NCBI GenBank assembly: GCA_000385055.1
Contig: ARRL01000004.1
Location: forward strand, 30,004-94,003
Reading direction: 5' to 3'
Origin: a gamma proteobacterium SCGC AAA168-P09
Lineage (GTDB): Bacteria; Pseudomonadota; Gammaproteobacteria; Magnimaribacterales; D2472
DNA length: 64,000 bases
Shown: piece by piece, positions 45,834 to 61,444 of the stretch
Position numbering within the stretch: the stretch's first letter is position 1
Layout: each line of letters opens with the position of its first letter
The notes under the pieces: model-generated
Databases searched by the model: none
The model's input: the letters and a program-made list of their open reading frames with translations, nothing else
Told to the model about the DNA's origin: nothing
Made by a program: the position numbers and the translations under genes

Positions 45834-46367
45834 TTGAGTCAAGAATTAGTTACTTATATAGTTCTTGGCTCAAAAACCAGGCTTAAAGAGACGAAACTGC
45901 CTGTCAAAAATAAATACGAAGAGTATCTTCGTCTTAATTTTGATTCAAAAGAAAATATAGTTAAAACTCTTGATGACTTGATTACTCTATCTAAGGGTGA
46001 TTTGATTGTATTACTGCCGCCATCTTCTTTTCCAAATACTCAAGCCAAAGAGGCACTTAAAAAAATAGCTTTAATAGGCTTGTCATCCTGGGGATGGTTT
46101 GAGTTTAGTTTAAAAAGAAAAAATTTTTTGCAAAATGTAAAAAAGATTAATACCTTAATAAGAAGTATTCCAGATCTAGAACAAGGAATTTATTTTTCTA
46201 AGAGTTTATATTTTTCAGTCGGAGGAATTGGATCATTTAACACAGCGCCATTCTCTGAAATTGCAAAAAGACTATATTCAAGAATTGATCCGCAAAAACC
46301 TCTTTCACCACTTATAATAAGAACAAAAAATCTTACACTAGATTTATACAATGCAGCCAAAAGTTAA
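45834..46367 (+). CDS. Hypothetical protein; possible truncated or degenerate family-2 glycosyltransferase-like relic
   Basis: 177 aa with a TTG start. 'GDLIVLLPPSSFP', 'WGWFEFSL' and 'GIYFSKSLYFSVGGIG' loosely follow the C-terminal two-thirds of GT2-type enzymes, but the N-terminal nucleotide-binding part is missing. Confidence 0.4.
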   Translation: MSQELVTYIVLGSKTRLKETKLPVKNKYEEYLRLNFDSKENIVKTLDDLITLSKGDLIVLLPPSSFPNTQAKEALKKIALIGLSSWGWFEFSLKRKNFLQNVKKINTLIRSIPDLEQGIYFSKSLYFSVGGIGSFNTAPFSEIAKRLYSRIDPQKPLSPLIIRTKNLTLDLYNAAKS

Positions 46368-46929
46368 AGCAACAAATCTAAGCTATAAAATTAATGAAAA
46401 GAAATTATTTCAAAATATTTCCTTTGAGCTTATGGCAGGAAAAGCTATTCATATACAGGGAGATAATGGTTCTGGTAAGACAACTCTTTTAAAAATTATA
46501 TGCGGCTTAACAAATCAAGTTAAGGGTGAAATAGAAAAAAAACTTGATAAACAGATATGTTTTTTAGGACATAAAAACGCCTTAAAACAGTATCTTACAG
46601 TAGAGGAAAACTTATCGCTCCTTAATATAATTAATCACCCAGACCTCAAACAGCACCTTATTGAATTTGGATTAGATAAAAGTCTTGATATAAATCTATC
46701 AAGCCTGTCTTTTGGTCAGCAAAAGAAGATTGCTCTATTAAGAGTTTTTTTAAATGATTCAGATCTAATTCTTCTAGATGAGCCATGTGTAGGCCTAGAT
46801 ACTCAATCTCAAAATTACTTATGCAGATTCTTAAATGATGAGTTAGAGCATAGAAAATCAATTTTGTTTTCTTCACATATTTCCTTAGATATCAATTCAG
46901 AAAAATTAAATTTAAGCGACCAAGTATGA
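46351..46929 (+). CDS. ccmA: Cytochrome c biogenesis heme exporter, ATP-binding subunit CcmA
   Basis: Walker A 'GDNGSGKTT', signature 'LSFGQQKKIAL' and Walker B 'LILLDEP'. It heads the ccm cluster. Confidence 0.85.
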   Translation: MQPKVKATNLSYKINEKKLFQNISFELMAGKAIHIQGDNGSGKTTLLKIICGLTNQVKGEIEKKLDKQICFLGHKNALKQYLTVEENLSLLNIINHPDLKQHLIEFGLDKSLDINLSSLSFGQQKKIALLRVFLNDSDLILLDEPCVGLDTQSQNYLCRFLNDELEHRKSILFSSHISLDINSEKLNLSDQV

Positions 46930-47573
46930 ATATAATAAAATTTGAATTACTCAAACTTAGAAATAAATCTAGAGGATGGCTTGGACCTATTTTGGTATTT
47001 ATTTTAATAATGGTTGCTTTCCCCTTGACTGTTGAAATATCTAATAAAGATTTAGATCAGTCATTTTTTGCAGTTTTATGGATAGCGGTTCTTCTTGTAA
47101 TGATGCTAGCAACTGAAGATATTTTTTTAGAAGATTTTAATGATGGTTCTTTGGAGCAGTTTGCAATTTCAGACATTAGTTTTCCATATATTATATCTGT
47201 GAAGATTTTTATTTATTGGCTATTAATAGGAGTGCCTATATCCATTATTGGGTCTTTGTTTTGTTTGGGTTTTACTAACTCAGGAAATCTTGCTATTAAT
47301 ATCTTTCCTATTTTGCTCATAACATCATATATATTTATTAATGTTTTTAGTTTTGGTAATGCCTTAAGTCTTACAAAGGGGTCTGTTCTTGGCACCCTAG
47401 TAACATTACCGTTATTACTTCCATTGCTAATTGTTTTGGGGAAAGCTGTTATTTCTATTAATCTTAATTTAAATTATTTAGGTTTTGTTGCTCTGCTTTT
47501 AGGCGTCTTATCGATTATAATATTCTTAATTCCATTAATTATTTCTTATATTATTAGAGCTCACTTAGAATAA
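46926..47573 (+). CDS. ccmB: Heme exporter membrane subunit CcmB
   Basis: 215 aa, 6 TM segments. It overlaps the ccmA stop and precedes ccmC. Confidence 0.85.
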   Translation: MNIIKFELLKLRNKSRGWLGPILVFILIMVAFPLTVEISNKDLDQSFFAVLWIAVLLVMMLATEDIFLEDFNDGSLEQFAISDISFPYIISVKIFIYWLLIGVPISIIGSLFCLGFTNSGNLAINIFPILLITSYIFINVFSFGNALSLTKGSVLGTLVTLPLLLPLLIVLGKAVISINLNLNYLGFVALLLGVLSIIIFLIPLIISYIIRAHLE

Positions 47574-47599
47574 TTTTTGGTCATAGAGAATATCTTATT

Positions 47600-48331
47600 G
47601 TGATAAAAAAATTTATACATCAATTTGCTTCGCCTAAGACCTACATGTATCAGGTAGATAGGGCTTATTCGTATATTTTCTATGTCTCATTGGTATTGTA
47701 TTTGGTTTCTATTTTTTGGGGCCTATTTGTTACTCCAGAAGACTTTGTTCAAGGTAATTCTTACAGGATTATTTATCTTCATGTACCTGCTTCTTTTATT
47801 TCTCAATCCTTGTATATTGCAATGGCGATAGCCAGCGCTATTTTTCTTATATGGAAAGTTAAACTTTCAGCATATCTAGTAAGATCCATAGCTCCTATTG
47901 GTGCAATTACTACATTTATAGCGCTAATTTCAGGATCTATATGGGGAATACCCACATGGGGAACTTGGTGGGTTTGGGATGCAAGAATTGTGTCTACTTT
48001 GATACTATTTATTATGTATCTTGGCTTAATATCTTTGCATGATTCGTTTAGTAATCACGAAAAAGCAGATAAGTTTCTTTCAATATTAGTTCTTGTTGGC
48101 TCAGTAAATATACCAATCATTAAAATGTCTGTGGAGTGGTGGAGCACCCTTCATCAGCCTGCATCAATAACAATATCAGATAAACCTGCTATAGATTTAG
48201 TCATGTTGTATCCATTATTTGGTTCAATAGTTGGTTTTGCTGGAATAGTTGCGTGCTTAGTTATTCTTTCATCTAAATTACAGATACTGCGAAGAGAAAG
48301 AAATAAATCATGGATAAAAAACTATGTTTAA
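47600..48331 (+). CDS. ccmC: Heme exporter / heme lyase subunit CcmC
   Basis: WWD motif 'WGTWWVWDARIV'. GTG start. Confidence 0.93.
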   Translation: MIKKFIHQFASPKTYMYQVDRAYSYIFYVSLVLYLVSIFWGLFVTPEDFVQGNSYRIIYLHVPASFISQSLYIAMAIASAIFLIWKVKLSAYLVRSIAPIGAITTFIALISGSIWGIPTWGTWWVWDARIVSTLILFIMYLGLISLHDSFSNHEKADKFLSILVLVGSVNIPIIKMSVEWWSTLHQPASITISDKPAIDLVMLYPLFGSIVGFAGIVACLVILSSKLQILRRERNKSWIKNYV

Positions 48332-48497
48332 TTTTGAATTTAATTCTTTGGCTGAGGCTTTTTTAATGCAAAGTCAAAACGGTCAAAATCATGGTATTTT
48401 TGTTTGGTCTGTACTCATAATTGTTTTCGTATCCATTTTAGCTACATTTATTTTCTATAAAATGAGTATTAAAAAAATCACTAAGAAATTAAAATGA
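48324..48497 (+). CDS. ccmD: Heme exporter small subunit CcmD (not in the supplied ORF track; 57 aa)
   Basis: The ATG overlaps the ccmC stop by 8 nt and the TGA overlaps the ccmE ATG (ATGA). It translates to MFNFEFNSLAEAFLMQSQNGQNHGIFVWSVLIIVFVSILATFIFYK..., with the single TM segment and 'F.W' pattern typical of CcmD. Confidence 0.7.
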   Translation: MFNFEFNSLAEAFLMQSQNGQNHGIFVWSVLIIVFVSILATFIFYKMSIKKITKKLK

Positions 48498-48898
48498 AAG
48501 CTAATAGAAAACAAAGATTAATAACAGTTTTATTAATTTTAGCTACCTCAGCAACTGGCTCATTTTTAATTATTCGTGCTCTTGATTCTAATCTAGATTT
48601 TTTCTTTACACCCTCTGAAATATTTAAAGAAGAAATACCTAACAACAAAAGAATTAAAGTTGGCGGTATGGTTTTAGAAGGCTCTGTTCTTAGAGACAAG
48701 ACAAATATTTCTTTTGTAATAACAGATTATCAGGGATCAATAAATGTTGAGTTTGATGGCATTGTCCCAGATTTGTTTAAAGAGGGTAGCGGTGTTGTTG
48801 TTGTTGGCTATTTAAGAGATAAAACTCTAGTAGCAGAGGATGTTTTAGCAAAACATGATGAAAATTACATGCCTCCAAGCATCGATATAAAAAATTAA
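48494..48898 (+). CDS. ccmE: Cytochrome c-type biogenesis heme chaperone CcmE
   Basis: N-terminal anchor, OB fold and the heme-binding 'LAKHDENYMPP'. Confidence 0.93.
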   Translation: MKANRKQRLITVLLILATSATGSFLIIRALDSNLDFFFTPSEIFKEEIPNNKRIKVGGMVLEGSVLRDKTNISFVITDYQGSINVEFDGIVPDLFKEGSGVVVVGYLRDKTLVAEDVLAKHDENYMPPSIDIKN

Positions 48899-50794
48899 AT
48901 GTTAATAGAGATAGCCCATTTCCTTTCCATTCTTTCAACAGGATTATTTTTTATATGCTTTATCTTTTCATTCTTTTTAAACTCTAAAGATATATTTATT
49001 ATTAACCTAGTTTCTAGAATATATTCACATAGTTTTTTTATATTTTTATCCTCTTTCTTTGTATATGTCTGGTTAGCAATAAGTGATAACTTTAGTGTTT
49101 TATATATTGCTCAACACTCCAATATTAATCTTCCAGTTTTTTATAAAATTTCATCTATTTGGAGCGCTCATGAGGGCTCAATGTTTCTTTGGATTATTTT
49201 CTTAACAACATGGGGCGCTGTATACAATTTATTCACTTCTAATGATCAACTTTTAAAGGCAAGAACGCTTGGAGTCATATCAATAACGTCTGTTGGATTT
49301 TTATTATTTTTATTATTAACATCAAATCCATTTGAAACTATCCTTCCTGTGCCTCCAGAAAATGGTGCTGATATCAATCCAGTTTTGCAAGACCCGCTTT
49401 TGGCAATTCATCCTCCCATGTTATATATGGGTTATGTTGGCTTTGTAATAGCTTTTGGACAGGCTATAGCATTTTTATTTGAAGGTAAGCCAGAAATTAA
49501 ATGGGAAAAGCAAGTTAGATCCTGGTCACTTGCTTCATGGTCTTTTCTTACTCTAGGGATTGCACTGGGTAGTTGGTGGGCATATTACGAACTTGGCTGG
49601 GGAGGGTACTGGTTTTGGGACCCAGTTGAAAATGTTGCCTTGATGCCTTGGCTTACAGCTACTGCGTTTGTTCATTCTTTAAGTGCTTCTTCAAAATCAT
49701 CTATTTTAAGAATATGGACATTATTGCTATCCATTCTTGTCTTCTCTTTAAGTTTATTTGGAGCTTTCATAGTTAGATCTGGGATTATTGATAGTGTTCA
49801 TTCGTTTGCAAATGATCCTGAAAGAGGATTATATCTTCTTGCATTTATCGGACTTCTTGTAATGGTTTCATTATTACTCTTCTCATTTAGATTTAATCTC
49901 CTCCTTTCAAATAAAAAGATTGCCTCTTTATCAAAAGAATCATTTATATCGCTAAATAATATCTTCTTTGGAACGTTAATCTTTTCAACAATGCTAGGCG
50001 TCTTATACCCTTTAATATATGAATTTATATATAATCAAAAGATAAGTGTCGGAGCTCCTTTTTATAACGCAATTTTTGTACCTATAACCTTAATAGCATG
50101 TATTTTTTTATACTTTTCAATTGATTCAAAATGGCAGCAGAGCTTAAATATAAAATCGCTTTTTCAGCCCTTACTTATATCACTAACATTTTCAGCAACA
50201 ATAGTTATCCTAGCTTTTTTTCAGTTTTCAATAACTAATTTGTGGACATTAGCATCATTGCTAATAGGCTCAATAATTATCATGCGATATATGATTGTGA
50301 TTTATTTTTACTTTGTATACAGAAAATTTACCAATATCTTCAGCGTTATCGCACATTGTGGCTTGGGTCTCTTAATAATATCGATAGCTTTAAATGACAA
50401 TCTAAGTTCCGAAAGGGCTTTAAATATCAAAATCAATGAAACAGAAATATATAAAGATCATCAAATAACTTTAAAAAACTTGAGAATGGTTCCTGGACCA
50501 AATTTTGATTCTGTAAAAGCAGACTTTTTAATAGAAAATCCAAATGGAAAAACTTTTACCTTAACCCCAGAGAAAAGAAAATATTTTGCTCGAGGACAAG
50601 TCACTACAGAAACTGCTATTCATGCATCTTTTTTAAAAGATATTTATCTAACAATTGGTGACCAGCTTGATGACGGAAGTTGGATTGTAAATATTCAATT
50701 TAATATATTTATTAGATGGATATGGTTTTCTGCAATGATGATGGTGGTTGCAGGGTTGTTACTTGCTCATTCTTTATCGAGATCAAGGCCATGA
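48899..50794 (+). CDS. ccmF: Cytochrome c heme lyase subunit CcmF
   Basis: 631 aa polytopic protein with WWD motif 'WGGYWFWDPVEN'. Confidence 0.95.
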   Translation: MLIEIAHFLSILSTGLFFICFIFSFFLNSKDIFIINLVSRIYSHSFFIFLSSFFVYVWLAISDNFSVLYIAQHSNINLPVFYKISSIWSAHEGSMFLWIIFLTTWGAVYNLFTSNDQLLKARTLGVISITSVGFLLFLLLTSNPFETILPVPPENGADINPVLQDPLLAIHPPMLYMGYVGFVIAFGQAIAFLFEGKPEIKWEKQVRSWSLASWSFLTLGIALGSWWAYYELGWGGYWFWDPVENVALMPWLTATAFVHSLSASSKSSILRIWTLLLSILVFSLSLFGAFIVRSGIIDSVHSFANDPERGLYLLAFIGLLVMVSLLLFSFRFNLLLSNKKIASLSKESFISLNNIFFGTLIFSTMLGVLYPLIYEFIYNQKISVGAPFYNAIFVPITLIACIFLYFSIDSKWQQSLNIKSLFQPLLISLTFSATIVILAFFQFSITNLWTLASLLIGSIIIMRYMIVIYFYFVYRKFTNIFSVIAHCGLGLLIISIALNDNLSSERALNIKINETEIYKDHQITLKNLRMVPGPNFDSVKADFLIENPNGKTFTLTPEKRKYFARGQVTTETAIHASFLKDIYLTIGDQLDDGSWIVNIQFNIFIRWIWFSAMMMVVAGLLLAHSLSRSRP

Positions 50795-51321
50795 CTATTT
50801 TTATTAGATTTATAATAATTAGCACCGCTTTAATGTTTTTTACATTTTTTTATCTATACATAAACGATGATAAATACTACCCAGGAGCGGATTTCACTAC
50901 TTCTAATATGCCGGATTTTGAGATTAAAGATTTATATTCTAAAAGAGTTTTTAGTGTTAAAGACTTAGATGGTAGCTATTTAATTAATGTTTGGGCTAGC
51001 TGGTGTATAACGTGTCGAATAGAGCATAGTTTTTTAGCTAAATTGGAATCTAACAATATACCAATTATTGGCCTTAATTATAAAGATGAAAAAGATGACG
51101 CTATAAATTGGATAACAAAGTTTGGTGACCCATATAAGTATATTATTCATGATTACAAAGGAGAGCTTGCTTTAGACCTTGGAGTAACTGGTGCGCCAGA
51201 AACATTTTTATTAAATGATGGAAAAATTATTGTTCATTATAGAGGTGAGGTGAATGACATGATTTGGAATGATGTATTCAAGCCCATTATCATGAAGGAG
51301 AATATTTTTAATGCTAATTAA
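50791..51321 (+). CDS. ccmG: Thiol:disulfide interchange protein CcmG/DsbE
   Basis: 'NVWASWCITCRIEH' and 'GVTGAPETFLL'. ATG 50791 overlaps the ccmF stop (ATGA). The longer track ORF from 50716 lies inside ccmF. Confidence 0.9.
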   Translation: MTIFIRFIIISTALMFFTFFYLYINDDKYYPGADFTTSNMPDFEIKDLYSKRVFSVKDLDGSYLINVWASWCITCRIEHSFLAKLESNNIPIIGLNYKDEKDDAINWITKFGDPYKYIIHDYKGELALDLGVTGAPETFLLNDGKIIVHYRGEVNDMIWNDVFKPIIMKENIFNAN

Positions 51322-51688
51322 GATCTTTTTATTTTTCTCAATAATATTTTCTAGCTTCGCTGTAGGTGAATCTCTCTATGAGTTTGATAGCATTGAAGAT
51401 GAAAAAAGATTTTATACATTAATAAAAGAAATTAGGTGTCCAAAATGCACAAGCGGCTCTCTGGCCAGCTCAAATGCACCGGTTTCTGAAGATATAAAAT
51501 CAAAAATAATACAGTTGATAAAAGAGGGAAAATCAGATCAGGAAATAAAAGAATTTTTATCTGACAGGTTTGGCAATCAGGTTTTATATAACCCAGGTTT
51601 AAGCAAAGATACATACTTTCTGTGGTTTGCACCTGGTTTATTTTTAATGCTAATTCTTCTTTTTTTCTTTTTCAGAAAAAGAACATAA
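51311..51688 (+). CDS. ccmH: Cytochrome c-type biogenesis protein CcmH
   Basis: Signal peptide, 'IRCPKCTSGSLASSNAP' (the LRCxxC motif), 'EGKSDQEI' and a C-terminal TM segment. Confidence 0.85.
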   Translation: MLIKIFLFFSIIFSSFAVGESLYEFDSIEDEKRFYTLIKEIRCPKCTSGSLASSNAPVSEDIKSKIIQLIKEGKSDQEIKEFLSDRFGNQVLYNPGLSKDTYFLWFAPGLFLMLILLFFFFRKRT

Positions 51689-52467
51689 TGATAATAGTTT
51701 ATTTGCTAGCTTTCATTTCATTATTTCCTGTATATGCCTACTTATTGGCACCAAAAACAAAAAATAAAGGGTATATTTTTGGCATTTCATTTTTAATTTT
51801 AATTTTTTGTTTATTTTCATTCGTTGGTAAATATTCTTTTCTTGGTTCTATAAAAGAACAAGAAATAAATAATAAAATATTTTTAATAATCGAGCAGGAT
51901 AATGAAATACCAGTGAATCTATTTAACTCATTTGATGCAATTATTGATGAAGAAAGCAAACTTTATTGGGCCCAAAGTTATATACAAAAAGCTATGTCAG
52001 AGCAGAAGCTTCAAGCAGCTGAAAGTCTTATATCTTTTTCAGAAAAATACTTCATGACATCAGATGAAAAGTTTGTTTTTTATACTTTGTACACTCAACT
52101 TAGAGATTTAAAGTTCCCTATTTTTGCAAACTCTAAATTTATTCTTAACCTTTCTCCACCTGCTGATTGTGAAAATTATAAAGGAAATATTTCGTTGTTT
52201 ATTATGAATGGCCCGAACATACCTATTGCCAGTCAAAATTTCCAGAATTCTTTCGAAGTTTCATTAGGTAATAATAATTCTTCAATTCCTGGATTTGATC
52301 TTGCTTCAGCCTACCTCAATCAAGAAGCTTTGGAGCTTAAAGCATCATTATTTTGTGTTGAAAAAAACTTGGATTATTTTTCTGAAAATGCCTTATTATT
52401 TGATCAAAATAATCATATAAATACCTATAATATTAGGCCAAATGAATGGTTAAAAAGAGAACAATAG
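51688..52467 (+). CDS. ccmI: Putative CcmI (c-type cytochrome biogenesis, apocytochrome chaperone); divergent
   Basis: It is the last gene of the ccm cluster. ATG 51688 overlaps the ccmH stop (TAATG). Two N-terminal TM segments precede a soluble domain. The call rests mainly on position. Confidence 0.5.
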   Translation: MIIVYLLAFISLFPVYAYLLAPKTKNKGYIFGISFLILIFCLFSFVGKYSFLGSIKEQEINNKIFLIIEQDNEIPVNLFNSFDAIIDEESKLYWAQSYIQKAMSEQKLQAAESLISFSEKYFMTSDEKFVFYTLYTQLRDLKFPIFANSKFILNLSPPADCENYKGNISLFIMNGPNIPIASQNFQNSFEVSLGNNNSSIPGFDLASAYLNQEALELKASLFCVEKNLDYFSENALLFDQNNHINTYNIRPNEWLKREQ

Positions 52468-52500: not shown

Positions 52501-55488
52501 ATGCAGCTAAATCATATAAAACTATCAGGTTTTAAAAGTTTCGTAGATCCAACGAAGATATCTTTTCCGACAAATTTAGTGGGTGTGGTGGGGCCTAACG
52601 GTTGCGGCAAGTCTAATGTTATTGATGCTGTTAGATGGGTTCTTGGAGAACTATCTGCAAAAAATCTTCGTGGCGAATCTATGGTCGACGTTATTTTTAA
52701 TGGATCTGAAAATAGAAAACCATCTGGGCAATGCAGTATCGAGCTATTATTTGATAACTCAAGTGGAAAAATTGGTGGCGAATACGCTTCATTCAATGAA
52801 ATTTCGATTAAAAGAGTTATGACTAGAGATGCTCAATCCACCTATTTTATTAACAGCACAAAATGTAGAAGAAAAGATGTTCAAGACATATTTTTAGGAA
52901 CGGGACTAGGCCCAAGCTCATATGCAATTATTGAACAAGGCATGGTTAGTAAATTAGTAAGCGCCAAGCCTGAAGAGTTAAGAACCCATATTGAAGAGGC
53001 TGCTGGAGTTTCAAAGTATAGAGAAAGAAGAAGAGAAACTGAGAGCAGAATCAAAAAAACTAAAGAAAATTTATCTAGAGTTAAAGATATTAAAGATGAG
53101 ATTGAGAGGTTAATTAGAAGGCTCGAAAATCAAGCAAATGCTGCAGAAAAATATAATCAATTTAAAAAAGATGAAAGTCAGAAGCAAACTGATATTGCAA
53201 TACTATACTCACTTGAGGCTAAAAATAATCGAGATAAACTTCAAAAAAATCTTGATGCGTTAAATAGAGATTTAAAAATCAAGCAGGCTGAGTCAGATTC
53301 AAAACAAGCTCAAATTGATGAACATAGAACACAAAATGCTTCTGTTGTAGATGCATATGAAAATGCTCAAAAAAACTTCTATTCGATAGGTGCTGAAATA
53401 GCTAAATATGAATCGGACCTTCAAAATGTTAGCAAATTAGAAATTTCTAATACAGATGCTCTCGAAAGAGCAAAAACAAGCTATCAAGATGCTGTTGAAA
53501 AAGAATCAAGCTTTAAGGATTTAAGCCCTAAAGAAAAAGAATTAAAGCTAGATATCGCTATTGTGAAAGCTCTTGACGCTCTTAAGCAAAAAAGCATTAT
53601 TGATGTCTTAGTAGATCCCTTAGAAGAAAAAATTGCTCAAAAACAACATGAACTCGACTCAAAACAAAATATTGTAGATGCAGTTAAAGCAGACCAGACT
53701 GAGATTACTGAAGAAATTAAAATTCTTCAACAACAAAAATATTCTATTGAGGCTGATATTGCAAGACTTGAAGGGGCACTTCAGAACCTCAATAAGATAG
53801 AAGAGAACGCAAGATTAGATTTTGAGAAAGCAAGCAGTAATTATTCTGATGCATTGCAAAAAGAGGCTAATAACGAACACTTAACTCCAAAAGAAAAAGC
53901 TATTCATTTACTTGATTCTATTACCGAACTATTAAAAGCATTTGGCTCCAAAGCAGATTCATTAAACTCCAAGGTTCATGAATTAAAAGCACTGCTAATA
54001 AATATTCTTAAAATTGCATCAGATCAATCTAAAAATTATACAGCTGATTTTTTGAATAGAAAGAATCAGCTAGAAGACCTTATCAAAACAACATCTGAAG
54101 ATGCATTGTCTAAAAATAAAGAATTATCTGAGTTAAAAGAAAAGAATATAAAAATTAAAAATGAATTGGACTCTAGGTTGGAAAACCAGTTTAATGTTGA
54201 TGAAAAAATTCGAGACTTAGATAGCAGCAAATCATTAGTATCGAATGAGCTGCGAAGTTTAGAAAAGAATATTTCTGATTACAGGCTTGAGTTAAGAACG
54301 CACGAGATTAATCTAGATAATGCTTCCATGGTATTGGATAAAGCTGGTATAAGTTTATCTGAACTAGATTCATCTAAGTATGCAGGAGCAGATCTTGCAA
54401 GCCTAGAGAACTCACTAGATGAGATTCAAAAAAATATTGCTGAATTAGGGTCATTTAACCTAGCTTCACCGGAGGAATATTTAGAAAGACAAAAAGAGCT
54501 TAATAATATGATTTCAGATGGCAAGGCTAAAAAACTTGAAATTCAAAAAGTTATGTCAGATCTTGTTGAAAAAAGCTCTATTGCTGAATCAAAATTAACT
54601 GACATTAGACAAAAGCAGTCAGAATTTAATAACAGTTTAAGAGAATTAGAAAATCAAAAGTCTATTGCTGATCTAGATTTAAAAGCCATTGGTGAGAAGG
54701 TTACCAACCTTAGACTTGAGCTTAAAACCCATGAAATAAATTTAGATAATGCTAATACTAAAATTGCAGAATCTGGAGTAAATATAGAAAATATTGATTT
54801 TTCAAAGTATGAAAATATGGATATTAATGAGTTGCAGAATAGTCTGACAGACATCCAAGCTAAAATTATTCGTCTTGGAGCAATTAACTTAGCAGCTCCT
54901 GAAGAAATTGCATCCGAATCAAAAAGAAAAGAAGAATTAGATATTCAGTATAATGACTTAACCGAGGCCCTTGAAAAGCTTACTGGAGCTATCAAAACAA
55001 TTGATATAGAAACAAAGACAAGATTTCAAGATAGCTTTGATGCTATTAATAATAGAATGAAAGAGGTATTCTCAAAATTATTTGGTGGTGGTATAGCTGA
55101 GTTAGCTTTGACTGAGGATGATGCATTAAATGCTGGTGTGGTTATTATGGCAAGGCCTCCAGGTAAGAAAAATTCTTCTATTTCACAATTATCTGGTGGT
55201 GAAAAAGCTTTAACTGCTTTAGCACTAGTTTTTGCAATATTTGAACTCAATCCTGCACCATTTTGTATATTAGATGAGGTAGATGCTCCTCTTGATGATC
55301 TAAATACGATGCGTTTTATAAACATGGTTGAAGAGATGTCAAAAACAGTCCAATTTATATTTATAACTCATAACAAAGTATCAATGGAAAAGAGTGATTA
55401 TTTGATGGGTGTAACAATGCAGGAGGCCGGTGTTTCAAGAATGGTATCCGTTGATGTAAATCAAGCATTAGAATTTGCTGAGGCCTAA
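52501..55488 (+). CDS. smc: Chromosome partition protein Smc (atypically short; no recognisable hinge domain)
   Basis: N-terminal head 'IKLSGFKSF...GPNGCGKSNVIDAVRWVLGE'. C-terminal head 'LSGGEKALTALALVFAIF' and 'FCILDEVDAPLDD'. A long coiled coil lies between. Synteny with zipA. Confidence 0.88.
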   Translation: MQLNHIKLSGFKSFVDPTKISFPTNLVGVVGPNGCGKSNVIDAVRWVLGELSAKNLRGESMVDVIFNGSENRKPSGQCSIELLFDNSSGKIGGEYASFNEISIKRVMTRDAQSTYFINSTKCRRKDVQDIFLGTGLGPSSYAIIEQGMVSKLVSAKPEELRTHIEEAAGVSKYRERRRETESRIKKTKENLSRVKDIKDEIERLIRRLENQANAAEKYNQFKKDESQKQTDIAILYSLEAKNNRDKLQKNLDALNRDLKIKQAESDSKQAQIDEHRTQNASVVDAYENAQKNFYSIGAEIAKYESDLQNVSKLEISNTDALERAKTSYQDAVEKESSFKDLSPKEKELKLDIAIVKALDALKQKSIIDVLVDPLEEKIAQKQHELDSKQNIVDAVKADQTEITEEIKILQQQKYSIEADIARLEGALQNLNKIEENARLDFEKASSNYSDALQKEANNEHLTPKEKAIHLLDSITELLKAFGSKADSLNSKVHELKALLINILKIASDQSKNYTADFLNRKNQLEDLIKTTSEDALSKNKELSELKEKNIKIKNELDSRLENQFNVDEKIRDLDSSKSLVSNELRSLEKNISDYRLELRTHEINLDNASMVLDKAGISLSELDSSKYAGADLASLENSLDEIQKNIAELGSFNLASPEEYLERQKELNNMISDGKAKKLEIQKVMSDLVEKSSIAESKLTDIRQKQSEFNNSLRELENQKSIADLDLKAIGEKVTNLRLELKTHEINLDNANTKIAESGVNIENIDFSKYENMDINELQNSLTDIQAKIIRLGAINLAAPEEIASESKRKEELDIQYNDLTEALEKLTGAIKTIDIETKTRFQDSFDAINNRMKEVFSKLFGGGIAELALTEDDALNAGVVIMARPPGKKNSSISQLSGGEKALTALALVFAIFELNPAPFCILDEVDAPLDDLNTMRFINMVEEMSKTVQFIFITHNKVSMEKSDYLMGVTMQEAGVSRMVSVDVNQALEFAEA

Positions 55489-56135: not shown

Positions 56136-57419
56136 ATGAAACCCTGGAAAATAATTCAGAAATTAGAAAGTGACAATAGTAGGTTATTTAAAGAAGGCGT
56201 TATAGAAGATAATCTTCATGATATTGTTTTACAAGAGGGGTTATCAATGTGTTTAGATGCCTTGGTAACATTTGGGGTTAAACAAGTTCCTGAATCTAAT
56301 GATGATGGAAAAGGACTTGATTGGAATAAATTTAATTCATCTGCACAGCTTTTAATAAATAGAGAGAGAACTGGCCATGCTGCTAGAGATGAAATTTTGC
56401 ATTTAATGTCTCTAGCTACTTCAGAGCAATGGAATGATTGGTATAGAAGAATTTTAATTAAGGATCTCAGATGTGGAGTAAGCCAGAAAACAGTCAATAA
56501 TGTTTCAAAAAAAATGGGATTAAAATATAGCGTACCTGTTTTCTCATGCATGTTAGCTCATGATGGCGCCAAGCATCCAAAAAAAATTCAAGGAAGATGT
56601 CTCGTTGAATATAAATATGATGGAGTTAGAGTCATAGCTATTACAAAAAACAATAGCACAACTCTTTATAGCAGGAATGGAAAAATTTTAGGTAATTTTC
56701 CTCATATAGAAGATGCATTAAATAAAAAAGAATTTAATAATTTAGTATTTGATGGAGAAGTGGTCAGTGATGACTTTCAGTCTCTTATGAAGCAGGTACA
56801 TCGAAAAACTAATGCTAAAACTGATGATGCTTATCTAGCTCTATTCGACATAATTCCTTTAGAGGAATTTAATAAAGGTAAAAGTAAGCTCAATAGTCTA
56901 GAAAGAAAAGATTTGCTTGATGATCTATCAAAAAATTTCAACTCTTGTATTAAACCGGTTGAATATGTAATCTTAGATTTTGATACCAAAGATGGCCAAA
57001 AAACATTTTCAGGTATGAATAAGAAAGCCTTAGAAGAGGGTTATGAAGGCTTAATGATTAAACCAATTAACGATATATACGAATCTAAAAGAAGTCACGC
57101 TTGGCTTAAGATAAAACCTTTTATAGAAGTTACTCTAAAGGTCACTCAAATTCAAGAAGGTACTGGCAAGCATGAGGGTAAGCTTGGAGCATTTTCAGTT
57201 GAAGGAGAGGACGATGGTAAGTTTTTCTCTTTGAGTGTTGGAAGTGGTCTCACAGACGACGATAGAGAAAAATTTTGGAGCGCTAGAGATTCTTTAATAG
57301 GCCAATTAATTGAAATCAGAGCCGATGCTATAACTCAAAGTATTGAAGGAGAGCACTTCAGCTTAAGATTCCCTCGTTTTAAAACTTTTAGAGGCTTTGA
57401 ACCAGGCGAAAAAATCTAA
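56136..57419 (+). CDS. ATP-dependent DNA ligase (nucleotidyltransferase KxDG family), not LigA
   Basis: Motif I 'EYKYDGVR' (Lys160, nt 56613-56615), motif III 'FDGEVV', motif IV 'EGLMIKP', motif V 'WLKIKP', and an OB domain with motif VI-like 'LRFPRFKTFRG'. An N-terminal extension of about 140 aa is present. Confidence 0.9.
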   Translation: MKPWKIIQKLESDNSRLFKEGVIEDNLHDIVLQEGLSMCLDALVTFGVKQVPESNDDGKGLDWNKFNSSAQLLINRERTGHAARDEILHLMSLATSEQWNDWYRRILIKDLRCGVSQKTVNNVSKKMGLKYSVPVFSCMLAHDGAKHPKKIQGRCLVEYKYDGVRVIAITKNNSTTLYSRNGKILGNFPHIEDALNKKEFNNLVFDGEVVSDDFQSLMKQVHRKTNAKTDDAYLALFDIIPLEEFNKGKSKLNSLERKDLLDDLSKNFNSCIKPVEYVILDFDTKDGQKTFSGMNKKALEEGYEGLMIKPINDIYESKRSHAWLKIKPFIEVTLKVTQIQEGTGKHEGKLGAFSVEGEDDGKFFSLSVGSGLTDDDREKFWSARDSLIGQLIEIRADAITQSIEGEHFSLRFPRFKTFRGFEPGEKI

Positions 57420-58031: not shown

Positions 58032-60899
58032 TTAGATATTTTTTATATCAAAATTAAGTTTAGAAAGCTCTTCAGTAAAGTTCTCACCAGCTATAACGGA
58101 TCTCTTAGAATCATTAAATAAATACTTTTCGGAAACTTTTACAAGATCTTCTAATGTACATTCTTTTACTCTTGATCTAAAAAGCAAGCGCTCTTCTTGT
58201 GTTTTATTATCAAGCTCACTCATAAAATCACTCATTGCTTCACCGTAAGGAGATAATGGCTTATCTATACTTGAGATAACCCCTAGCACACCTTCTTCAA
58301 GCTGATCATTTGATATGTTTTTCAAAGACCAGGCTCTAGAATTTTTAAATTCTTCAAACGTTTCTGTACATTTTGGATCCCTATAAGAGAAAAATTTAAA
58401 TACTTTATTATTTGAATCTTGAGTAGCGCCAGATCCATAAGCACCGCCTTTCTCTCTAATTGCCGAATGAAGAAAGCCATTACGCAATACAGTTCCAAGA
58501 ACAGTTAAAGCAGGAGCATCCTCATGCTTTGAATCAACTGATGGGAAAGCTTCTGCACAAAAACATACTTGCGATCCAGTAACCCAGCCAACTGAGTTAT
58601 TTTGAACATCAACAAAATCTTGATCATTTAAATCAAAAGTTTCTGAATTAAATATAGTATTTAGTTTAAGGTCAGATTGATCTAATGATGAGGCGGTAAA
58701 TGAATAGTTGGGTGTTTTTGATAGCTTATTTTTAATGGAATGCAGCGAATTTAAATATATATCAAATTCATTCTTATCACTTACTAACTTAGATAATTTA
58801 TTTGTATTATGTATAAATCTTAAGCCTGAAGTTAAATCATTAGTTGCTGCAATATCTGTTATTTGAGATGCAGCATTACTCATTGATAGGATATGACCAT
58901 TTTGAATTACAGATTTTTCGTTATCTGCAGATATAAACTCTAGCAACTCTTTAATTCTCTTTGATTCGTTAAAATTTGAATCACTAATTGTTTTTAGCAT
59001 TAAATCCTGCATTAAAAGATCATTTTTTTCTAAGCTCTTGGATGAGAGCTTTAAAGCTAATTTATATGAGTTGCCATCATCATTCGGTAAAGTAATAAAG
59101 GAAGCAGAAATGCCGCCAGTTATTGAAGATTGATATCTTTGAATATCTTCATATGAATCATGACCAAGGCCAATATCTGTTAATGTGCTTGTAAAAAGGT
59201 TTGCAACACTTAACTCATCCTGATTTAAAGCATCGCATGGAAATAACATAGAATGATAAACGATACCGTTTGTACCAGTTTTGTAAAAATAATTAGAATT
59301 TGTATTAGTTTCTGTTATTACTGGAGATGCATAGTTTCTTGAAAGAGGGATGTCGTCTTTTGTTACCTTTGGAAGAATCTCAGGATCATCTTGTGCATTC
59401 TGTCTGGTTTCAAGCTCGTTAGCTAGCCTTACAATATCTTCCTTTTCTTTTTGTGATAAATCCCTAGTTTTTTCAAAGACTTTTTGCTGGATTTTATCTT
59501 CATTTTTTTTATTGAATTCAGTGTCTGGTACAAGAGAGTAATTCAACCTATGCGCATTTAAAATAAGATTTTTTTCTATGAGGTTTTCAATATAATTTTC
59601 TGATTTTAAATTTTTTTTAATAGTATCAAATGCATTGTCTAGGTCTAGAATTTCAAGAGGATTGTCATTATGTATACAAGCTGGTAAACAATTTAACATT
59701 ATTTGAAGCCCAAATGGCATGCCTGAACCTGTTATTTCTCTTTGCCTTATTTCAAGTTGATGTAAAGAGGAGTTTATTAAATCTTTTGGAACCCCATCCT
59801 TAACAAGCGATTCAAGACAGTCAATTATCAATTTTTCGACTTCAATTTGCTTATTTGCATCCACTCCTTCAAGACCAGCCGCAAAAACAAGTTCTTTTTG
59901 ATCTGCCTCAAGTCCTGTAAGGGGAGATGGTGACGTGCCTAATTCTGAACCCTCTAGAGCTTTTCGAAGGGGAGACGCTGAATTATCTAAAAGTATATTA
60001 GACATTAAGTAAGTCTCCAGAAGTTCTACTGGATTATGACTCTCATTTAGAAGCCAGCTAATTACAACATGATGATTATTTTCATCCCCAGGCTGAGGGT
60101 TGTAAAAATCAGATATTGTTTTTGGTGAAGATAGTCTTTTTTCATTTCTCACTGCTACTACTTCATTAGATGGAGAGAAGCTATCTAGTACATTAACTTT
60201 AATAAATTTTTGAATTTCTTTAGGATCTAGTTTACCGAATGTAAAAAAGGTTGCATTAGATGGGTGATAATGCTTTTTATGAAAATTAACTAAATCTTCA
60301 TGAGTAAGATCAATAATATTTTCTGGGTCTCCACCACTATTATGTTTATATGTTGATGAAGAGTACAAATGTTTTGACATACCATGCCACAATTGACTTG
60401 TAATGGAGCTCATTGCTCCCTTCATTTCATTATATACAACACCTTTAATTTCAATCTCACTGTCAGGATTATTTTTCTCCTTGAATTCAAGTCTATGGCC
60501 TTCTTGAGCAAAATCCAAGCTATCAAGATTTGGAAAGAATGATGAATCTAAATATACCCCTAATAAATTATCAAAATCTTTTTTGTTTAGAGTTGCAAAA
60601 GGGTAAGCTGTCCAATCACTTGATGTGAAGGCATTCATAAATGTATTAAGAGATCTTCTTATCATCATAAAAAAGGGATCTCTTACAGGATATTTCTTGG
60701 AACCACAAAGGGCAGTATGCTCAAGAATGTGAGCTACCCCAGTTGAATCTTCTGGAATTGTTCTAAAAGCAACCATAAAAACTTTTTCATCACTATTTGT
60801 ATCTAAGTGGACATGCTTGCAATTAAATTCAGATTCGTTATATATTTGAGCATTAATATCTAATAAAGGAATATACTTTTGTTCTTGAAGGTTAAACAT
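58032..60899 (-). CDS. Peptidase M16 family zinc metalloprotease, PreP/M16C-like (955 aa)
   Basis: Inverted zinc motif 'HILEHTALCGS' near the N-terminus. The four-domain length is typical of presequence-protease-like M16C enzymes. Confidence 0.88.
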   Translation of the reverse strand: MFNLQEQKYIPLLDINAQIYNESEFNCKHVHLDTNSDEKVFMVAFRTIPEDSTGVAHILEHTALCGSKKYPVRDPFFMMIRRSLNTFMNAFTSSDWTAYPFATLNKKDFDNLLGVYLDSSFFPNLDSLDFAQEGHRLEFKEKNNPDSEIEIKGVVYNEMKGAMSSITSQLWHGMSKHLYSSSTYKHNSGGDPENIIDLTHEDLVNFHKKHYHPSNATFFTFGKLDPKEIQKFIKVNVLDSFSPSNEVVAVRNEKRLSSPKTISDFYNPQPGDENNHHVVISWLLNESHNPVELLETYLMSNILLDNSASPLRKALEGSELGTSPSPLTGLEADQKELVFAAGLEGVDANKQIEVEKLIIDCLESLVKDGVPKDLINSSLHQLEIRQREITGSGMPFGLQIMLNCLPACIHNDNPLEILDLDNAFDTIKKNLKSENYIENLIEKNLILNAHRLNYSLVPDTEFNKKNEDKIQQKVFEKTRDLSQKEKEDIVRLANELETRQNAQDDPEILPKVTKDDIPLSRNYASPVITETNTNSNYFYKTGTNGIVYHSMLFPCDALNQDELSVANLFTSTLTDIGLGHDSYEDIQRYQSSITGGISASFITLPNDDGNSYKLALKLSSKSLEKNDLLMQDLMLKTISDSNFNESKRIKELLEFISADNEKSVIQNGHILSMSNAASQITDIAATNDLTSGLRFIHNTNKLSKLVSDKNEFDIYLNSLHSIKNKLSKTPNYSFTASSLDQSDLKLNTIFNSETFDLNDQDFVDVQNNSVGWVTGSQVCFCAEAFPSVDSKHEDAPALTVLGTVLRNGFLHSAIREKGGAYGSGATQDSNNKVFKFFSYRDPKCTETFEEFKNSRAWSLKNISNDQLEEGVLGVISSIDKPLSPYGEAMSDFMSELDNKTQEERLLFRSRVKECTLEDLVKVSEKYLFNDSKRSVIAGENFTEELSKLNFDIKNI

Positions 60900-60931: not shown

Positions 60932-61444
60932 ATGAAAAATATAACAACACTACTTACACTAATACTATTAATCGGTTGTAATAGTATTCAAACTAACATT
61001 GAAGTTGATTCAGTTGATACTTTCAACTTAGACAATTATAACGACTTTTATATAAAGATAAATGAATCTAATGTTAGTGCTGAAATAAATCCTATTGAAT
61101 TAGAAAGATTTAAAGATAATCTTAAGTATGCACTTCAAGAAAGAGGTCTTACTTATTCAGCTGATTCAAACCTTACATTTGATATCAACCTAACTACCAA
61201 AGATAAAATTCAATCAGATAGAATGAATCATTATTATTCTAGATATTACTGGGATAGATATATGTACCGTGATGACATTAGAACTATTACAGAGAATATT
61301 CTTAGAGTTAATCTTAAGGATAACTCTTCAGACTCAACCCTTTGGACTGTCGTGACTATATGGAGGTCAGGTTCTTCAAAAGCAGCGACATCAGATGATG
61401 GATCTGATCTAATTGTAGATGAAATAATGCTTAGTTTTTTATAA
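60932..61444 (+). CDS. Small lipoprotein (DUF4136-like)
   Basis: Lipobox 'LLIGC'. 170 aa. The pattern 'LRVNLKDNSSDSTLWTVVT' resembles that lipoprotein family. Confidence 0.5.
   Translation: MKNITTLLTLILLIGCNSIQTNIEVDSVDTFNLDNYNDFYIKINESNVSAEINPIELERFKDNLKYALQERGLTYSADSNLTFDINLTTKDKIQSDRMNHYYSRYYWDRYMYRDDIRTITENILRVNLKDNSSDSTLWTVVTIWRSGSSKAATSDDGSDLIVDEIMLSFL

Follow-up and report, generated by a model that had tools for sequence, protein, structure and literature searches.

In a large clade within the marine SAR86 bacteria, the position directly after smc and zipA is occupied by a gene for an ATP-dependent DNA ligase, and gene order in a sister lineage indicates that this position formerly carried ligA. 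Taking the whole explanation together, we consider it likely that this Pmar-Lig-type enzyme derives from a viral gene which replaced ligA in place, and that it is now the housekeeping ligase of the clade. LigA is treated as the universal and essential replicative ligase of bacteria; it serves as a target for antibacterials and, at the level of domains, as a marker that separates bacterial from archaeal and eukaryotic replication. In the surface ocean, few heterotrophic bacteria are as abundant as SAR86. The features of the 64-kb stretch of DNA that was analysed (hereafter, the window) are listed in Table 1.

Table 1. Features of the window around the ligase gene (positions are those of the window).
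Feature	Position	Strand	Evidence
ccmC-E-F-G-H-I cytochrome c maturation genes	47600..52467	+	ORFs; colinear with loci L230 and L231; Pfam on orthologous loci
smc, 995 aa, without recognisable hinge	52501..55488	+	NCBIfam SMC equivalog TIGR02168, 855 bits (cut-off 567)
zipA, 209 aa	55488..56117	+	ZipA_C, 52 bits (cut-off 23); N-terminal hydrophobic anchor
ATP-dependent DNA ligase, 427 aa, Pmar-Lig / AD-Lig P type, ATG start	56136..57419	+	Pfam, PHROG and PDB matches
N-terminal alpha-helical DNA-binding domain, ~residues 1-140	56136..56555	+	Aligns to 6RAU residues 10-150
PF01068 region of the ligase	56577..57116	+	Pfam PF01068; invariant active-site residues
K160 codon, predicted adenylated catalytic lysine (motif I, KYDG)	56613..56615	+	Aligned with Pmar-Lig K167; invariant
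OB-fold domain (OB_2 type), residues 341-419, motif VI LRFPRF	57156..57392	+	Pfam PF14743; R411-F415 invariant
SLT_4 lytic transglycosylase-like gene, 203 aa	57419..58030	+	PF19489, E 2.7e-72
M16/PreP-type peptidase	58032..60899	-	Between the SLT_4 and DUF4136 genes, in the ATP-ligase clade only
170-aa lipoprotein-like ORF	60932..61444	+	Positional equivalent of the sister-clade DUF4136 gene after SLT_4

Results

Gene order around the ligase slot

The genes directly upstream of the ligase gene had been named smc and zipA in an earlier note on this DNA, and both names were borne out by profile matches (Table 1). The smc stop codon overlaps the zipA start codon (TAATG), zipA and the ligase gene are separated by 18 nt (TAA + 18 nt + ATG), and the ligase stop codon overlaps the start of the SLT_4 gene (TAATG), which forms the downstream border of the ligase slot. 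No terminator-like site was detected on the + strand inside smc-slt, and promoter-like sites at the cluster were fewer than in shuffled sequences. The 995-aa Smc of the window gave no Pfam match to the Smc hinge domain. Further downstream, the 170-aa ORF is 65-68% identical to its counterparts at two other loci (L008 and L018), and PF13590 was found in the orthologous gene of locus L236, this domain call being made on the ortholog and not on the window ORF.

In E. coli, ligA (b2411) lies directly after zipA. When metagenome contigs were scanned with the LigA motif TRGDGxxGE[DEN][IV]TxN in AT-rich codons, 120 AT-rich LigA loci were returned and were screened with the window proteins. Two of them (L136 and L188) have the order smc-zipA-LigA-SLT_4, with SLT_4 proteins 50-52% identical to the SLT_4 of the window, and ccmG-H-I are also located upstream in L136. 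The 674-aa LigA of L136 contains the Ia, adenylation, OB, Zn-finger, HhH and BRCT domains, and, used as a query, it retrieved a very abundant clade with LigAs of 673-676 aa (best 120 hits, all of them from the sister clade). The order ccmA..I-smc-zipA-LigA-SLT_4-DUF4136 was found in 5/5 loci taken from different sequence clusters (P0357, P0330, P0368, P0332 and P0282), and a full-length LigA of 673-678 aa, with every LigA Pfam domain, occupies the ligase slot in all seven sister-clade loci examined (7/7). The LigA gene of this clade is preceded by a spacing of 11 nt and followed by one of 0, -1 or 6 nt; the corresponding spacings around the SAR86 ligase gene are 18 and -1 nt. No M16 peptidase gene lies between SLT_4 and DUF4136 in the sister-clade loci.

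Three features define the relationship between the two clades. First, the window and the LigA-bearing clade are colinear between ccmA and SLT_4, with proteins that are 26-54% identical. Second, the Smc proteins of that clade are short (800-826 aa), hinge-less and matched by SMC_N only, and this unusual trait is common to the Smc of the window. Third, identity is 66-96% among the SLT_4 proteins of that clade and ~50% between these and the SLT_4 of the window. Judged by these three features, the LigA-bearing clade is a distinct sister lineage. Its assemblies include GCA_902582615.1 and GCA_902532675.1. Five other gammaproteobacterial loci of the same sample (L123, L163, L181, L203 and L218) show zipA-ligA or smc-zipA-ligA. 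Since zipA-ligA is found both in E. coli and in these metagenome loci, gene order indicates that LigA is the ancestral occupant of the slot and that the ATP ligase took its place later, while the flanks stayed as they were. Very probably, ligA was displaced in situ in the SAR86 clade. The earlier note had proposed such a replacement and had pointed to relatives with ligA at this position as a check, and the proposal gains from the sister clade, in which the same gene order encloses a full-length LigA between zipA and SLT_4. The ancestor of the clade would have carried ccm-smc-zipA-ligA-SLT_4, the ligase gene of a marine virus would have displaced ligA in place, and this gene would then have been inherited vertically within a tightly packed cell-cycle gene cluster under strong purifying selection.

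Conservation of the ligase gene in SAR86

A scan of GTDB species representatives gave 25 ligase loci with 73-95% identity. Nearly all of them carry the label SAR86 cluster bacterium, and one lies on a closed 1.30-Mb chromosome (OX044367.1). Further large sequences of the ATP-ligase clade are CAXYEK010000001.1 (912 kb) and CALSSL010000001.1 (768 kb), and GCA_902624845.1 is another of its assemblies. The order ccmI-smc-zipA-ligase-SLT_4, followed by the M16 peptidase gene on the opposite strand, is present in 25/25 of these SAR86 species, and the ligase gene has been kept at this one position across species whose divergence exceeds dS 2. Its GC content (33.3%) and GC3 (22.9%) are like those of its neighbours, pairwise ligase identity is correlated with that of M16 and ZipA (r ~0.8), and the dN/dS of the gene (0.035-0.053) is equal to or below that of smc, zipA and M16. 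Because of this native composition, the co-varying identities and the low dN/dS, the ligase gene is an old, vertically inherited core gene under strong purifying selection and not a recent insertion.

An accessory role of the enzyme, for example in repairing the damage that UV or oxidation causes in surface waters, would require that a functional NAD-dependent LigA is encoded elsewhere in the genome. Most ATP-dependent ligases of bacteria are accessory (PMC7470946), high-light Prochlorococcus strains keep truncated NAD-ligase fragments elsewhere in their genomes (bioRxiv 10.1101/2020.05.11.089284), and the sequence read in the present analysis amounts to 64 kb here and ~21 kb per relative, all of which leaves room for an accessory role. 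However, ligA would then have moved out of a slot which both E. coli and the sister clade have kept, and a second ligase would have settled in exactly this slot, in the same orientation and with the same spacing. Two full ligases are also unlikely in a streamlined 1.3-Mb genome, and the conservation of the gene as a core gene (25/25 species, dN/dS ~0.04) speaks for more than an accessory function. Weaker arguments come from negative results: tblastn with E. coli LigA gave no LigA match in the 64 kb of the window or in any of the 25 SAR86 loci of ~21 kb, no relocated-looking LigA was present among the 120 AT-rich metagenomic LigA loci, and none of the five sister-clade LigA homologues that were looked up lay outside the slot. 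Among the best 120 hits of the LigA protein search, no contig agreed in length with a SAR86 contig, although a relocated LigA of greater divergence would have fallen outside these hits. We regard the accessory role as unlikely. Instead, the SAR86 clade is probably without a functional LigA and replicates with the ATP ligase; the enzyme would then be the present housekeeping ligase for Okazaki fragments and repair nicks, with no functional NAD-dependent LigA left.

A recent mobile or prophage insertion, in which a phage gene was captured in one genome only, is highly improbable: the match to PHROG_114 and the close viral homologues would fit it, but no phage genes flank the ligase gene, its base composition is native, it has the identical position in 25 species diverged to dS>2, and the SAR86 ligases are monophyletic in 100/100 neighbour-joining bootstraps.

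Viral relatives of the ligase

Public homologues of the ligase are numerous, with >8000 clusters at 90% identity, and a search of 50%-cluster representatives gave 829 clusters at E<=1e-30. The identical protein, however, was not on record when public assemblies were searched for an exact match. In a collection of cultured phages, the closest ligases were SPO1-like and showed ~35% identity. At least 561 relatives are present in IMG/VR, and the 80 best matches among them fall into two groups. Group A (L027-L053) comprises the nearest relatives of the ligase outside SAR86, and these are from uncultured marine viruses; they are 55-65% identical to the SAR86 ligase over the full length and 44-53% identical to Pmar-Lig. 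Their genes are surrounded by those for RNR, DnaB-like helicase, primase-helicase, DNA polymerase, PhoH and thymidylate synthase. Group B is ~53% identical to the SAR86 ligase and 58-73% identical to Pmar-Lig, and its context includes head-maturation protease, tail-fibre and endonuclease genes. The viral status of these IMG/VR contigs was assigned from the PHROG content of the flanks.

In bootstrapped neighbour-joining trees, the only type of tree used (100 replicates), the SAR86 ligases group with group A in 87/100 replicates and are nested among group A in 92/100. All replicates (100/100) place Pmar-Lig within group B, and none (0/100) makes it the exclusive sister of SAR86. A phage-type origin had been suggested in the earlier note, together with a phylogeny against viral ligases, and the nesting of the SAR86 clade among viral enzymes of 55-65% identity agrees with it. 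As SAR86 groups with group A and Pmar-Lig with group B, the trees suggest two independent captures of viral ligases, one in SAR86 and the other in Prochlorococcus. This reading is provisional, since neighbour-joining trees and IMG/VR viral calls are its basis.

Domains and predicted active site of the ligase

The translation contains the motifs EYKYDGVR (residues 158-165), FDGEVV (205-210), EGLMIKP (304-310), WLKIKP (323-328) and LRFPRFKTFRG (410-420), and motifs I (KxDG), III, IIIa, IV and V of the adenylation domain are all present. The layout of the protein is that of a DNA-binding domain, a nucleotidyltransferase domain and an OB_2 domain. Pfam DNA_ligase_A_M (PF01068) was matched with an E value of 8.5e-23 (81.5 bits, cut-off 26.2) and DNA_ligase_OB_2 (PF14743) with an E value of 2.5e-11 (43.8 bits, cut-off 28), and PHROG_114 'ATP-dependent DNA ligase' matched residues 5-420 (E 4.3e-88). 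A phmmer comparison with PDB 6RAU (Pmar-Lig) aligned residues 5-427 (E 1.3e-133), with 53.5% identity over the full length. On these matches, the product is an ATP-dependent DNA ligase that belongs to the Pmar-Lig (AD-Lig P) family, and not a new type.

Other ligase classes were compared and rejected. Among the LigA domains, neither adenylation (PF01653), Ia, Zn finger, HhH nor BRCT was detected by Pfam in the 427-aa ORF. For Lig E, NCBIfam PRK09125 gave 71.9 bits against a cut-off of 200; Lig E enzymes have two domains, ~260-280 aa and a signal peptide, whereas the SAR86 ligase has a 140-aa helical domain and a hydrophilic N-terminus (MKPWKIIQKLESDNS). For Lig D and Lig C of the NHEJ pathway, TIGR02779 and TIGR02776 gave 92 bits against 227.75 and 81 bits against 373, respectively; the OB fold expected for these classes is PF04679, whereas that of the SAR86 ligase is of the OB_2 type. 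No gene for Ku, the partner of Lig D and Lig C, is located near the ligase gene in the ORF list of the window. Lig B, which is associated with the Lhr operon and the TIGR04120 / PF04675 N-terminal domain, gave 53 bits against a cut-off of 400.

That the protein might be an RNA ligase or an mRNA-capping-type nucleotidyltransferase and not a DNA ligase has a practically negligible probability, as its weak Pfam matches to RNA_ligase (PF09414, 24.4 bits) and mRNA_cap_enzyme (PF01331, 18.5 bits) lie under the gathering scores of 27 and 29.6 while the DNA ligase domains lie above theirs, and as its full-length identity of 54% is to a nick-sealing enzyme crystallised on nicked DNA. Thus, most of the reading of the protein in the earlier note was sustained: all of the catalytic motifs that it quoted occur in the translation, the assignment to ATP-dependent DNA ligases agrees with the PF01068, PF14743, PHROG_114 and 6RAU matches, profile searches did not place the ORF among RNA ligases or capping enzymes, and the hallmarks of LigA (length, PF01653, Zn finger, HhH and BRCT) are lacking in this 427-aa protein. 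Its remark on the N-terminal extension, which it found to resemble neither T7 nor PBCV-1 ligase, has to be revised, since these ~140 aa have a counterpart in Pmar-Lig (6RAU), whose helical DNA-binding domain has been described as T4-ligase-like (PMC6698739). By this alignment, the N-terminal 140 aa are a helical DNA-binding domain of the Pmar-Lig type. The domain contains an invariant TGHAARD motif, which holds H81, the equivalent of the DNA-contacting H89 in Pmar-Lig. An AlphaFold model of moderate quality, built from a shallow alignment (pLDDT 63.8, pTM 0.49) and used as a consistency check only, has seven N-terminal helices at low confidence. With this model, Foldseek gave full-length matches to Pmar-Lig (6RAS), the P10VF ligase (9FZX) and the T4 ligase (6DT1), and the top matches were 6RAS and 6RAR (E 6.5e-37).

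The predicted active site is that of Pmar-Lig. In that enzyme, K167, D169, G170, R172, E220, F249, E319 and M322 contact AMP, the nick and the catalytic metal (PMC6698739). Pmar-Lig E165, K167, D169, G170 and R172 correspond to E158, K160, D162, G163 and R165 of the SAR86 ligase, and E220, F249, E319 and M322 correspond to E208, F237, E304 and M307. All of these SAR86 residues, together with K309, K325 and K327, are invariant across the SAR86 sequences and Pmar-Lig, as is RFPRF of motif VI, and no catalytic, AMP-binding or metal-site residue of Pmar-Lig is missing. Since the contact residues of Pmar-Lig are all invariant in the SAR86 ligase, we infer with high confidence that the enzyme would seal nicks in three ATP-dependent steps. 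By analogy with the crystallised homologue, K160 would attack ATP to give ligase-AMP. The helical N-terminal, nucleotidyltransferase and OB domains would encircle the nicked duplex DNA, and AMP would be handed from the ligase to the 5' phosphate at the nick. Finally, the nick would be sealed by the 3' OH, which would be activated by one Mg2+ that D162, E208 and E304 hold through waters. DNA nick sealing and ATP use have been shown biochemically for Pmar-Lig, which is 54% identical (bioRxiv 10.1101/2020.05.11.089284; PMC6698739), and ATP rather than NAD+ is the predicted adenylate donor of the SAR86 ligase.

Discussion

Compared with the enzymes already described, the SAR86 ligase most closely resembles Pmar-Lig (6RAU, 6RAS, 6RAR and 6RCE). 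Both consist of the same three domains (~440 aa in Pmar-Lig and 427 aa in SAR86), and both are located where relatives carry a full-length LigA. The differences are in the host and the site: Pmar-Lig belongs to a cyanobacterium and its gene lies downstream of recA between two small ORFs, whereas the SAR86 ligase belongs to a gammaproteobacterium and its gene follows zipA. Moreover, ATP use and LigA loss have been reported for Prochlorococcus, whereas both are predictions for SAR86. The T4 (6DT1), P10VF (9FZX) and SPO1-type (PHROG_114) ligases likewise combine a helical domain with nucleotidyltransferase and OB domains that encircle DNA, with ~20% identity to the SAR86 ligase for T4 and P10VF. 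However, these are viral replication enzymes, whereas the SAR86 ligase gene is a chromosomal, vertically inherited bacterial gene. In the same way, the group A ligases are found in phage modules for replication and nucleotide metabolism, whereas the SAR86 gene adjoins zipA. The NAD+-dependent LigA of E. coli and of the sister clade has the same slot after zipA and presumably the same job, but it has only the fold class of the nucleotidyltransferase/OB core in common with the SAR86 ligase, which is 247 aa shorter than the sister LigA and is without the Ia, Zn-finger, HhH and BRCT domains.

A replacement of LigA has already been reported elsewhere, and the universality of LigA, which the earlier note gave as the accepted view, has published exceptions. 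In a 2020 NAR review, no bacterium was known to be without an NAD-dependent ligase (PMC7470946). Ten days later, a preprint from the same group reported that the NAD-ligase genes of high-light Prochlorococcus are only truncated ones, that AD-Lig P occupies the genomic position of the LigA of low-light strains, and that it is ATP-specific and >10-fold more active than the NAD ligase (bioRxiv 10.1101/2020.05.11.089284). A further published exception, from 2015, is the TM6 bacterium Babela massiliensis, which, unlike SAR86, is an intracellular parasite of amoebae (PMC4378268). Our literature search found no paper that ties SAR86 to an ATP ligase or to the loss of ligA. What is new here is the SAR86 case itself, the exact before/after pair of loci and the evidence for convergence.

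It is reasonably likely that the SAR86 clade is without an NAD ligase and replicates with a virus-derived enzyme, and that this swap was independent of the one in Prochlorococcus and drew on another viral lineage. If this is true, SAR86 would be the second free-living, globally abundant lineage with a LigA swap, the Prochlorococcus case would be no one-off, and a core replisome enzyme would have been exchanged convergently in two streamlined lineages of the sunlit ocean. Pipelines for annotation or for the assessment of genome quality would also be affected where they count on a LigA in all bacteria. The sister clade that retains LigA would be a natural control, and the question of why bacteria use NAD+ ligases would turn into a comparative one. 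Convergent loss of LigA in two oligotrophs of high-light waters, both AT-rich and streamlined, would point to testable drivers, and the candidates are NAD+ economy, gene size (from 674 to 427 aa) and higher specific activity.

Genes flanking the ligase slot

The SAR86 species carrying the ATP-dependent ligase and the LigA-bearing sister clade share several features around the slot (coordinates are given in the table). First, a complete cytochrome c maturation operon, ccmABCDEFGHI, directly adjoins smc in both clades (seen in the window and, for the sister clade, in L230 and L231), and this adjacency was not seen in L163 and L218, the remaining gammaproteobacterial loci with smc-zipA-ligA in the sample. 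The ccm-smc adjacency is useful as a lineage marker. Second, Smc of both clades passed the SMC equivalog model (TIGR02168), but the hinge domain was not detected in either, with Pfam returning SMC_N alone even when the middle segment was searched at E<=5. Most of these proteins are 730-826 aa long and that of the window lineage is 995 aa, against ~1180 for the model, and the 732-aa form lacks model positions ~372-667. The window Smc has 260 extra amino acids with 33% self-similar HSPs, which look like a duplicated coiled coil. The smc upstream of zipA-ligA in L163 is of normal length (~1170 aa). In another metagenome locus (L148, GC 29.5%), ligA directly follows an smc-like gene with 46% identity to the C-terminus of the window Smc, and zipA was undetectable between the two.

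Between SLT_4 and the DUF4136 gene, every locus of the ATP-ligase clade carries an M16/PreP-type peptidase gene on the opposite strand, which is missing at this position in the sister clade (L230-L235). This difference represents a second rearrangement at this spot. In two SAR86 MAG loci, SLT_4 (L004) and the M16 gene (L011) were each recovered as two tblastn segments, pointing to frameshifts or misassembly in these MAGs.

Features at the examined loci
Feature	Locus	Coordinates	Strand
ccmABCDEFGHI	window	46351-52467	
smc	window	52501-55488	
smc	L017	7171-9366	
smc	L136	2405-4885	
smc	L230	6884-9352	
M16/PreP-type peptidase gene	window	58032-60899	-
SLT_4, two segments	L004	11293-12035	
M16, two segments	L011	11913-14764	

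Viral relatives of the ligases

The nearest relatives of the ligase outside SAR86 were found on uncultured phage contigs from IMG/VR (L027-L053; 55-65% identity, GC 34-42%, some ~90 kb), where the neighbouring genes encode RNR, helicase, primase, DNA polymerase, PhoH and radical-SAM proteins. These contigs could be SAR86 phages. Other viral contigs of IMG/VR, ~70-100 kb long (L054-L106, e.g. L068, L078, L091 and L095), carry ligases 58-73% identical to Pmar-Lig, the ATP-dependent ligase that replaces LigA in high-light Prochlorococcus, and these are set in a structural module with head maturation protease (5/5 loci), tail fibre and endonuclease phrog_8420. This arrangement agrees with what has been published on magroviruses, which infect Marine Group II archaea: their ligase is 'embedded in the structural module' and has relatives among ligases 'from uncharacterized bacteria' (PMC5434244). 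If L054-L106 are magroviruses, genes of archaeal viruses would be the nearest to the replacement ligase of Prochlorococcus.
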